DNA from: a bacterium
GTDB lineage: Bacteria; SZUA-182; SZUA-191; JAJRXT01
NCBI GenBank assembly: GCA_024276125.1
Contig: JAJRXT010000085.1
Location: 20,580 to 84,579, forward strand
DNA: 64,000 nucleotides
Reading direction: 5' to 3'
In this document: positions 39,179-41,776 of the stretch, piece after piece
Layout of the letters: each line of letters opens with the position of its first letter
How positions within the stretch are numbered: position 1 is the stretch's first letter
Notes under the pieces: generated by a model
What the model saw: only the letters and a program-made list of their open reading frames with translations
What the model was told of the DNA's origin: nothing
The model's database searches: none
Program-made: the position numbers and the translations under genes

Positions 39179-41776
39179 TTATTCCTTACTGGTAATTGGT
39201 ATCTGAGATTTTCCATTTTTATATCTAAGCAGCCGGCTGGAATTTAAAATTACCCCGATGCTGTTTAAAATATGCAATATCCCGCCGGTAAGCGGAGAGA
39301 TTATCCCGCCTGCTCCCAATGTAATCCCGACAGCATTCATAGCCATGGAATAGGTATAATTTTGTTTAATAATAGCCATCGTATGCAGGCTCAGCCGCCG
39401 CAGGCTCAATATATCTTCTAAATTATCCCTGCTTAAGGAAATATCGGCGGTCTCAACCGCCAGTTCCGAGCCGCCTGCTCCCATGGCTATACCTAAACGC
39501 GATTGAGACAGAGCCAGGGCGTCGTTTACTCCGTCTCCAACCATAGCAACCTCAGCGCCCGCCTTACTCAGCTTATCAATTAAAGCAGCCTTTTCCTCCG
39601 GCAGCATTTCATAATAATACTCATCCAGATCAAGCATTCTGCTTACAGCCTGCGCCGAACGCTTATTATCGCCGGTAATTAAGACTATCTTTTTTATACC
39701 CGTTTCTCTTAACTGCCGGATAGTCTCTTTGGCCTCAGGCCTTAAATTGTCCCTTATACCAATTGCGCCAATAAGTTGTGTATCTTTAGCTACATATACA
39801 ACAGTTTCGCCTCTATCCATTAACTCGGAAATCTCTCCATTCAGCTTTTCCACATCTATATCTATCTCTGTCATCAGACGGTGGCTGCCTACGGCAATAG
39901 TTACGCAGTCTTCCATAACTGCCAGAATACCTTTTCCAGTACGCATTTCACAAGACTTATGCTCAGGCGTAGCAACTCCAAGTTTTTCCGCATGCGCCAT
40001 AATGGCTAGACCAAGGGGATGTTTATAGTGCATCTCAGCGCAAGCAGCCAGCGCCAGTACATCTTCAACAGATGCAGTATCCGTGCGGTTAATTACCGTC
40101 TCTACAGTAGGTTTGCCGGCTGTAAGCGTGCCAGTTTTATCCAGACATAGGGTATCGATACGGCTTGCTTCCTCTAAATATCGTCCGCCTTTAACCAGAA
40201 TATTATTTCTGGCGGCATTGCCAATCGCTGCGCTTACCGCAGTGGGGGTGGCAATAGCGGCGGCACATGGACAGGCTGTTACTAATACCGTCATGGCGCG
40301 GTAAAAATCTCTGGTAACTACATATACCCCAATAGAAAAAATAAAGGCAAATGGTACAAATTTAGCGGCAAACTGATCGGCTATACTTTCAATCGGGGCT
40401 CTGGTTTCCAAAGACTCTTCCACCAGATGTATCACCCGCGCAAGATATGTGTCATCGCCTACTTTGGCCGCCTTTACTTGAAGATATCCCTCTTCCAGCA
40501 CAGTACCGGCATACACCGTATCTTCAGCTTTTTTGTATACCGGGATTGATTCGCCGGTAATAGAAGCCTGATTTACCGAACCCTCGCCGGATACAATCTC
40601 ACCGTCTACAGATATTTTCTCGCCGGTATGAATACAAACAACAGCATCTATAGGAACCTGATCCAATGGTATTCTGACTTCCACATCGTCAACCAGCATC
40701 CAAGCCTCATCCTCGCCTAACTGAATCAACTCATGAATAGCGCGTCTTGATTTATCCGCAGTATACTCTTCTAAAAGAGTTCCGCAGTTCATAAGCCAGA
40801 TAACCTCTAGGGCGGTAAGCCCCTCGCCCATAACAATGGACATAATAGCCGCCATGCTTACCAGAAAATCCAGGCTGAGCTTTTTGTGCTCAATCATATA
40901 GGTTATGCCTTCCTTAAATACCGGTATACCGGCGACTAAAGCAGTAACTGAAGCCATTTTATTTACTACCGGCAAGGAAAACGGACCGCGTTTGAATATA
41001 ACTTTTACCAAGGATACGGCCAAAATAACCCCGGTAGCGACTATACCTAAAAACGGTAAGGCTAAGTCAGATTCCTGATTGTCCTTTTTAGGGCAGCATA
41101 TTATGTTGTTGTTGTTTTTTATTGCTTTAGCCGATTGTACTTTAGACAGGGTGGCGATAATTTCTTCAGGGGTAATTTGTTTTTGGTCATAAAAGACCAA
41201 TGCCGAACCGGTAATAATGTTGGTAGTTAAGGATTTGATATTTTTATGATTTTCAGCTTCCCGTTCAAAAGCCTGCGCAATAAGGGGTCTTCTTTTTAAT
41301 GAATTAATATAAAACCTGACTCTTCCCGGCAAAAGATGACCAATTGTGTAATCTATCAGTTTTACCTGAGCAGTCTTTTCTTGGGCTGTATTTTGTGCAT
41401 TATCTTCTGAAGTCTTTTTTTCTGATATGTTGTCAGTTGATGCGGCTTCTTCTTCTGTCTTGTTGTTTGGCGTTGAGACTTTATTTTTTTGCATACTGGT
41501 TTTTTTTTCTTTTATCAGGGTTACGGGTGGATTTTTATCAGGCTTGCTGTTTTTCTTAGCATAAGCCATAATTTTACAGATAGGCGGGCGGGCATTAGGA
41601 GCTATTTCTACCAGATCGAGCTTTGCCTTACGGGCTAATTCCAGGGCTTTATCCAGAGGAACCACATTTAGATTTTCACCCGAAGCATTAATCAGGCGTA
41701 CTTTTTTTTGCTTGATCTCTTTATTTATTTTGGGCGGTTCTTTGGAATTAAAAGATTTTTTTTTAATATTTATCAC
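39179..41776 (-). CDS. Heavy-metal P1B-type ATPase with N-terminal IF3-N-like domain and H..PGRVR HMA-like domain
   Basis: TGES, ACPC, DKTGTLT, HP, GDGVND motifs; last TM ILHILNSIGVILNS; GTG start overlaps the upstream TGA. Confidence 0.92.
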   Translation of the reverse strand: MINIKKKSFNSKEPPKINKEIKQKKVRLINASGENLNVVPLDKALELARKAKLDLVEIAPNARPPICKIMAYAKKNSKPDKNPPVTLIKEKKTSMQKNKVSTPNNKTEEEAASTDNISEKKTSEDNAQNTAQEKTAQVKLIDYTIGHLLPGRVRFYINSLKRRPLIAQAFEREAENHKNIKSLTTNIITGSALVFYDQKQITPEEIIATLSKVQSAKAIKNNNNIICCPKKDNQESDLALPFLGIVATGVILAVSLVKVIFKRGPFSLPVVNKMASVTALVAGIPVFKEGITYMIEHKKLSLDFLVSMAAIMSIVMGEGLTALEVIWLMNCGTLLEEYTADKSRRAIHELIQLGEDEAWMLVDDVEVRIPLDQVPIDAVVCIHTGEKISVDGEIVSGEGSVNQASITGESIPVYKKAEDTVYAGTVLEEGYLQVKAAKVGDDTYLARVIHLVEESLETRAPIESIADQFAAKFVPFAFIFSIGVYVVTRDFYRAMTVLVTACPCAAAIATPTAVSAAIGNAARNNILVKGGRYLEEASRIDTLCLDKTGTLTAGKPTVETVINRTDTASVEDVLALAACAEMHYKHPLGLAIMAHAEKLGVATPEHKSCEMRTGKGILAVMEDCVTIAVGSHRLMTEIDIDVEKLNGEISELMDRGETVVYVAKDTQLIGAIGIRDNLRPEAKETIRQLRETGIKKIVLITGDNKRSAQAVSRMLDLDEYYYEMLPEEKAALIDKLSKAGAEVAMVGDGVNDALALSQSRLGIAMGAGGSELAVETADISLSRDNLEDILSLRRLSLHTMAIIKQNYTYSMAMNAVGITLGAGGIISPLTGGILHILNSIGVILNSSRLLRYKNGKSQIPITSKE

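Follow-up and report, generated by a model that had tools for sequence, protein, structure and literature searches.

We analyzed a 64,000-nt stretch of bacterial DNA (GenBank assembly GCA_024276125.1, contig JAJRXT010000085.1, positions 20,580 to 84,579 of the forward strand; GTDB lineage Bacteria; SZUA-182; SZUA-191; JAJRXT01), hereafter called the window, whose positions are counted from its first letter. One long open reading frame (ORF) on the minus strand joins the N-terminal domain of translation initiation factor IF3 (IF3-N), the product of infC, to a P1B-type metal ATPase. A first reading of the window, made from the letters alone (the sequence-only reading), had drawn attention to this fusion. 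The ORF, its initiation region and its parts are as follows:

39179..41776, minus strand: the whole fused ORF, made up of IF3_N, a linker, HMA_2 and the P1B ATPase (865 codons counted from the GTG, plus the stop)
41773..41780, minus strand: infC-type Shine-Dalgarno (SD) sequence, GAAGGTGA, which contains the GTG that the sequence-only reading took as the start and whose TGA is the stop of the upstream small gene
41765..41767, minus strand: probable non-canonical ATT start, codon 4 of the ORF
41552..41728, minus strand: IF3 N-terminal domain, residues 17-75 (recognized by Pfam, a PDB match, AlphaFold and Foldseek)
41351..41551, minus strand: linker rich in K, E, T, N and S, residues 76-142, predicted to be disordered (predicted local distance difference test, pLDDT, 37-63)
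41492..41494, minus strand: ATG at codon 95 (Met95), inside the linker, aligned with the start of the longest homologues
41135..41344, minus strand: HMA_2 domain with the R-rich motif PGRVRF, residues 145-214 (PF19991)
39182..41134, minus strand: membrane and catalytic core of the P1B ATPase (E1-E2 at residues 355-524, HAD at 540-758)

The translated ORF was compared with Pfam-A and NCBIfam models. IF3_N (PF05198) matched residues 17-75 with an E value of 3.9e-23 and 81.8 bits against a gathering cut-off of 26.9, covering positions 1-59 of the 70 in the profile. The IF3-N pattern that the sequence-only reading had seen by eye is thus borne out by the hidden Markov model search it had proposed; the peptide it quoted is present, on the minus strand, which had not been stated. 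The IF3_N match is followed, in this order, by HMA_2 (PF19991, residues 145-214, 49.3 bits against a cut-off of 30, with the RxR motif present as GRVRF), E1-E2_ATPase (355-524) and Hydrolase (540-758). The NCBIfam model for heavy-metal P1B ATPases, TIGR01525, scored 552 bits against a cut-off of 346, and the core motifs TACPCA, DKTGT, GDGVNDA and HILNS can be read from the translation. The frame is unbroken from IF3_N through to the ATPase, so the earlier claim of an in-frame fusion through a linker to a metal ATPase holds, and that ATPase is complete. The infC model TIGR00168 matched the fused protein over positions 3-68 of its 170 alone, and no IF3_C was found. Without a C-domain, the predicted protein is itself not an IF3 and not an initiation factor.

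The fold of the N-terminal part was evaluated by sequence search against the PDB and by structure prediction. Residues 1-135 found an IF3 chain, 8jsg_A, as the best PDB sequence (E 5.8e-16), and 1tif_A was matched at E 7.7e-14. An AlphaFold2 model of residues 1-235, built from a 51-row alignment of IF3 and ATPase homologues, shows the IF3-N part (residues ~12-72) as strand-strand-helix-strand-strand with pLDDT 96-98, residues 73-142 as low-confidence coil, and the HMA_2 part with moderate confidence. Foldseek on this model returned seven significant PDB matches, all of them IF3. The top match was the IF3 N-terminal domain 1tif, with a target-normalized template modeling score of 0.78 and a root-mean-square deviation of 1.3 Å over 62 columns, and the IF3-N fold is therefore predicted to be kept. 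A separate idea, that IF3_N is akin to the R-rich strand of HMA_2 (VRLI compared with RVRF), was rejected with an hhalign probability of 0.3%.

The initiation region of the fused gene was compared with that of infC genes from the same phylum. The fused gene reads GAAGGTGA, then TAAAT, then ATT AAA AAA AAA; a 7-nt SD match, AGGTGAT, is followed after 4 nt by the ATT, which lies 22 codons ahead of the first beta-strand. The distance from start to strand is the same 22 codons in the genome's own infC and in the relatives G001 and G002. In the own infC, ATG, GTG and TTG are absent between the preceding stop and the domain, so its start must be non-canonical. We examined 13 infC genes of the phylum, that is, the own gene and those of 12 relatives (loci L001, L005, L007, L008, L010 and L024-L031). 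All 13 have 6-9 nt of an SD of the GGAGGTGA type and, 3-6 nt later, an in-frame ATA, ATT or ATC codon, which stands 16-22 codons upstream of the first beta-strand in every case. Over codons 1-8 the fused gene is identical to the own infC at 18 of 24 nt, compared with 108 of 177 nt across the domain. Most long ORFs of the window lack so strong an SD: of the 23 scanned at their listed starts, 2 have a match of at least 6 nt.

The sequence-only reading had taken the GTG that overlaps the upstream stop as the start. The overlap itself is confirmed, as GTGA, whereas the GTG as a start is not, since it lies within the infC-type SD and the ATT follows three codons on; it is most likely part of the SD. 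Because the same layout of an SD and an AUH codon (AUA, AUU or AUC) is found in 13/13 infC genes of the phylum, the start of the pump gene is likely to be the ATT at 41767..41765. Whichever of the two is used, ATT or GTG, the product includes the IF3-N segment. An AUU or AUC start of infC is described as the target of IF3 autoregulation in the part of the source used here (PMC5499595). Two further observations concern the phylum's infC genes as such: among the set of 13, the SD is unusually long, reaching up to 9 nt of GGAGGTGAT, and in 3 of the 13 a GTG lies in frame within the SD, where it could be miscalled as the start.

The source genome, G000 (159 contigs, 94% complete), has two IF3_N matches, namely the fused ORF and a frame on contig C154. 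The latter is the separate intact infC that the sequence-only reading had asked to confirm: a frame of 185 codons with 116 bits for IF3_N, including the C-domain region, flanked by an ORF resembling ThrRS on one side and by L35-like and L20-like ORFs on the other (identified by eye). As that reading had also stated, no IF3 C-domain, thrS or rpmI was found near the fused ORF.

We compared the fused domain with IF3 proteins to evaluate where it came from. Over residues 17-75 it is identical to the own IF3 at 37 of 59 positions, compared with 25-35 of 58-59 positions for 17 other IF3 proteins, all from relatives. A wider set of 168 IF3 candidates consisted of the 150 top phmmer hits among 1.84 billion representatives and the 18 IF3 proteins of the own genome and the relatives. 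The own IF3 ranked first of the 168, both for the domain (score 201, next 188; 37/58 identical) and for the tail plus the domain (score 222, next 193). The tail I-x-IKKK is common to the fused copy and the own IF3 and is lacking in the 17 other IF3 proteins; likewise, the two share GENL[D/N]V, at a place where L-G stands in each of the other 17. Because the own IF3 ranks first and these rare features are common to both copies, the most economical interpretation is that part of infC was duplicated within its own lineage, albeit by a modest margin.

The divergence between the fused domain and the intact infC, another check that had been called for, was then calculated. The proportion of synonymous differences (pS) is 0.87, which is beyond correction, and the nonsynonymous divergence (dN) is 0.30. 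Third positions are 36% identical, compared with 27% expected from the base composition, and 13 of the 37 identical residues use the same codon. Since synonymous sites are near saturation while dN is 0.30 and both the frame and the fold are retained, the domain appears to be kept by purifying selection, weaker than on IF3 but clearly present. A neutral captured infC fragment, which the sequence-only reading had offered as its alternative, is disfavored by these near-saturated synonymous sites together with the 37 of 59 residues and the fold that are kept.

Constraint on the two copies differs in degree. In the other IF3 proteins, 24 positions are conserved at 90% or more; of these, the fused copy keeps 17 and the own IF3 keeps 23, and two of the seven missed by the fused copy are alignment gaps at the domain edge. 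When changes were polarized by the majority of the 17 other IF3 proteins, 18 fell on the fused copy and 3 on the own IF3, with 8 unresolved. The conserved residues of the D-Y-G-K-Y-K-Y domain end, which leads into the IF3 linker, are lost in the fused copy. Residues of E. coli IF3 were mapped through the ungapped alignment to chain 8jsg_A. The equivalent of R25 is kept as R27; that of Q33 is N35, as in the own IF3; and at the place of R66 stands K68, a lysine also present in the own IF3 and in most relatives. In E. coli, R25, Q33 and R66 contact the elbow of the initiator tRNA, and R25 is invariant, according to the portion of the source consulted (PMC9723500).

The occurrence of the fusion was examined in related genomes, protein collections, genome and metagenome contigs and the literature. 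Exactly one IF3_N was found in 38 of 40 relatives, in frames of 174-224 codons, and only G000 has a second; the two relatives without a match are genomes that are 63% complete. When 5.8 billion clusters were searched by word seeding with residues 1-230, 2859 candidates of 475-1514 amino acids (aa) were scored, and none of them carried such a fusion except the query itself. With residues 1-235, phmmer returned 4848 hits among the 1.84 billion representatives (E <= 0.001), and the best 150 of these, which were 61-281 aa long with a top score of 71 bits, included no combination of IF3_N with HMA_2. PF05198 was found in none of the 119 nearest P1B ATPases among the matches listed. Longer proteins matching residues 1-76 were limited, from 91 candidates, to the query and three ordinary IF3 proteins, which is weak evidence.

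A pattern search of genome contigs with the single fused protein gave 109 pattern matches and no relative. A search with the homologue alignment, which was dominated by generic P1B ATPases through the DKTGT pattern, kept 80 loci at 31-38% identity, none of them reaching below query residue 154, and gave no help with the ancestral context. Metagenome contigs held one distant match to the fused protein, at 22% identity, and a protein atlas searched with residues 1-235 gave no usable match. Literature searches found no paper on a fusion of an IF3 N-domain with a P-type ATPase or on PF05198. The remark in the sequence-only reading that no such fusion had been described agrees with these results, and the predicted fusion is unique among everything searched and lineage-specific. 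As to the collections themselves, the query protein was absent from the hits in the library of 50%-identity representatives, and the representative of its cluster evidently lacks this N-terminus.

The pump was compared with its closest homologues. These are 47-51% identical and 710-767 aa long, with HMA_2, E1-E2 and HAD parts, and some further homologues in the list are named by their sources as 'cation-transporting' or 'manganese/zinc-transporting P-type ATPase C'. Across the aligned homologues, PGRVRF, TACPCA and H-x-x-NS are conserved. The 12 homologues that were aligned begin at residues ~95-147 of the fused protein. Because Met95 corresponds to the start of the longest, the addition to the pump is probably about 94 residues, consisting of IF3-N and a short stretch. 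Among the other 19 genomes of the phylum, none yielded an orthologue of the pump at E <= 1e-140; the best matches in relatives are 33-40% identical, and the pump gene may have been acquired from outside. Its HMA_2 domain belongs to the only HMA_2 protein in the genome.

The following genes stand next to the pump gene on the same strand:

42338..42571, minus strand: small protein 3, 77 aa, a more distant paralogue
42075..42299, minus strand: small protein 2, 74 aa, a paralogue of protein 1 with the C-terminal sequence KEHLEDLIEE
41773..42075, minus strand: small protein 1, 100 aa, with a hydrophobic glycine-rich segment containing GAVFG and then an acidic helix
38352..39170, minus strand: ECF/CbiO-like ABC ATPase, 8 nt past the pump stop (Pfam ABC_tran)

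The three small paralogues upstream of the pump each have a hydrophobic glycine-rich segment and an acidic helix. Small protein 2, with its KEHLEDLIEE motif, matches the small protein of a cluster in G028 that resembles ferrosome (fez) clusters (E 2e-6). The ABC ATPase scored ~225 bits with the NCBIfam models of ECF/cobalt ATPases, below their cut-offs. The compact fez-like cluster of G028, a distant relative, lies at G028:C1 85..4591 (L013) and encodes an ATPase bearing the motifs DYSCG and HNSTT, three R-rich proteins (two soluble, one a membrane protein of 250 aa) and a glycine-rich small protein of 90 aa.

Several other features of the window were recorded. A 129-aa protein (42651..43040, minus strand) with a weak PHA_gran_rgn match (20.9 bits against 26.6) may share the operon. 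Just upstream of the small-protein genes, a 71-aa protein of the HTH_17/excisionase family (43389..43604, minus strand) resembles the magnetosome protein MamR faintly, at 29.7 bits against a cut-off of 100. Between this gene and that of a 605-aa membrane protein with no NCBIfam match lies an AT-rich stretch (43600..45350, GC 0.29-0.36) containing short ORFs alone. Farther away are a BatA/von Willebrand factor A pair (31742..36221, minus strand, 862 and 634 aa), which resembles an aerotolerance (Bat) operon, and two adjacent giant frames (3..8261 and 8262..14249, plus strand) of 2753 and 1996 codons, counted from stop to stop. An Rfam scan of the window found a single tRNA only, promoter and terminator scans gave counts not above those of shuffled sequence, and the GC profile has no sharp island boundary.

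We give a probability of roughly 0.55 to the reading that this is a real, lineage-specific fusion, in which the 5' part of the own infC was duplicated onto a CtpC-like pump gene, bringing an IF3-sensitive start and an N-domain that has since been maintained. The copied piece would take in the SD and the non-AUG start together with the N-terminal tail and the N-domain in full. A predicted disordered linker of ~65 residues joins it to a P1B ATPase with an HMA_2/R-rich domain, and the pump follows three small FezA-like membrane proteins in a fez-like operon. Translation from the ATT behind the strong SD would make pump synthesis sensitive to IF3, so that plentiful IF3 would repress it and a shortage of IF3 would release it, as in the case of infC. 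The IF3-N module would be cytoplasmic and flexibly tethered, and presumably maintained for a role at the protein level.

The most plausible roles of the module would be weak binding to the 30S platform or to initiator tRNA, or that of a regulatory N-terminal domain of the pump. Other P1B ATPases are gated by N-terminal regulatory domains, and we regard such a role as equally open as ribosome or tRNA binding. The latter may be possible because separate sites for IF3N exist on the 30S platform (near uS11) and on the tRNA elbow; the two IF3 domains bind 30S independently, as far as the cited part of the source describes (PMC8266586). Most functions of IF3 are assigned to its C-domain (PMC9723500). 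A bolder extension, which we consider quite improbable, is that the tethered IF3-N acts as a sensor or anchor: binding of 30S or initiator tRNA would gate the pump or localize initiation at a ferrosome-like compartment, while the AUU start would report IF3 activity. If this is true, ribosome status and metal handling would be linked at two levels.

If the fusion is real and functional, the autoregulatory start of IF3, a strong SD with AUU, has been moved by duplication onto an unrelated gene, and a metal pump has come under the control of an initiation-fidelity factor. It would also be the only IF3 N-domain outside the initiation factor in the present searches, and thus a clean test of the lone domain.

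Several points weigh against this interpretation. The fusion is represented by a single sequence, taken from one assembly of 159 contigs, and was found in no other genome. As for the start, the in-frame GTG overlapping the upstream stop could serve through translational coupling, bypassing IF3 control, and a shorter isoform without IF3-N is possible from the ATG at codon 95, which matches the start of the longest homologues. The margin of the own IF3 over other IF3 proteins is modest (37 compared with 34 identities). The 18 derived changes compared with 3, together with the loss of the D-Y-G-K-Y-K-Y end, indicate that constraint is relaxed relative to IF3. The dN/dS argument presumes an origin in the own lineage; if the source was a recent, unsampled foreign infC, the signal would reflect a past as an initiation factor. 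Moreover, since the fusion is known from one genome, dN/dS describes the fused domain against the own infC and not the fusion branch alone.

The binding function could also stand on its own. In this alternative, the domain is a co-opted ribosome- or RNA-binding module by which 30S, initiator tRNA or mRNA would be tethered, either at the membrane or at a compartment resembling a ferrosome, and the initiation region is incidental. The predicted intact fold under selection, the retained R27 (E. coli R25) and K68 (R66) and a long disordered cytoplasmic tether, which suits capture, are consistent with it, as are the separate 30S and tRNA sites of IF3N (from the same part of PMC8266586). However, the C-domain with most IF3 functions (PMC9723500) is absent, the conserved residues at the domain end are lost, and the arrangement was not found in any other lineage searched. 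We regard this alternative as unlikely.

It is likewise doubtful that the domain is a near-neutral passenger, whereby a partial infC duplicate gave a start to a horizontally acquired pump and was tolerated as a foldable extension. The fusion is a singleton, the derived changes are 6-fold more numerous in the fused copy than in the own IF3, and homologues of 710-767 aa work without an IF3-N domain. The pump's lack of an orthologue in the 19 other phylum genomes at the above threshold, with relatives at 33-40%, suggests acquisition from outside. Set against this are the near-saturated synonymous sites with a dN of 0.30, the intact core and the retained surface arginine, an objection that becomes weaker if a recent, unsampled foreign infC was the source.

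An assembly artifact in any form is very unlikely. It could be a chimeric join, or an error in the A9 run at codons ~90-92 that hides two proteins, an IF3-N protein of ~100-140 aa and an ATPase starting at Met95. A one-base change in the A9 run would indeed close the first frame 98 or 137 codons in, and Met95 aligns with the homologue starts; however, no SD precedes Met95, and the window has 12 other homopolymer runs of 8 nt or more within long frames that stay intact, among which are the frames of 2753 and 1996 codons. For a chimeric join, both ends of a linker unlike either parent would have had to fuse in frame, and the segment, at only 63% identity to the own infC, is not that gene wrongly joined. 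That the IF3-like segment is an untranslated leader and Met95 the true start is extremely improbable. Met95 does align with the starts of the longest homologues, but an untranslated relic would not be expected to keep 94 open codons in DNA of ~37% GC, an 82-bit Pfam score and a confident predicted fold with synonymous sites near saturation, and the 7-nt SD stands before the ATT with none before Met95.

Compared with known systems, the duplicated and maintained infC piece resembles IF3 in the sequence and fold of the N-domain, the N-terminal tail, the strong SD with an AUH start and the R25 equivalent. It differs from IF3 in that the lysine-rich IF3 linker and the C-domain are missing, the D-Y-G-K-Y-K-Y end is not conserved, and it is joined to a pump. 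The pump in turn is like the CtpC-like R-rich/HMA_2 P1B ATPases in its HMA_2, E1-E2 and HAD parts, in the motifs PGRVRF, TACPCA and H-x-x-NS and in its 47-51% identity to homologues, whereas those homologues have no IF3_N (the 119 among the matches listed, and the 12 aligned, which start at ~95-147).

In the part of the source used here, FezB (P1B-6) is defined by D[Y/F]SCA and HNxxT, the R-rich motif is also ascribed to pumps such as CtpC, and a fez cluster consists of a FezB homologue and small GxxxG proteins (10.1101/2020.01.10.902569). The present locus is similar to clusters so described in that an R-rich P1B ATPase follows small hydrophobic glycine-rich proteins. The R-rich motif, along with transmembrane metal sites that are distinct, is also a trait of FezH, the second R-rich P1B ATPase of fez clusters in the same text; the motif is present in the pump, and the comparison with FezH concerns this motif alone. 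In contrast to FezB as defined there, the pump has TACPCA and HILNS instead of D[Y/F]SCA and HNxxT, and no FezC or further HMA_2 protein was found in the genome. The G028 homologue, with DYSCG and HNSTT, comes close to that FezB definition. Because the pump lacks the FezB motifs and HMA_2 occurs in no further protein of the genome, the locus is best described, from its predicted proteins, as fez-like and not a fez cluster by definition; there is no FezB-type pump, and the pump is CtpC-like.

With regard to the start, the nearest comparison is E. coli pcnB. To our knowledge, the pcnB start was not gained by copying infC, and pcnB carries no IF3 domain. In E. coli, pcnB is the other chromosomal gene, besides infC, with an AUU start, and this start limits its translation, as reported in the portion of the source on which we rely (PMC5499595).

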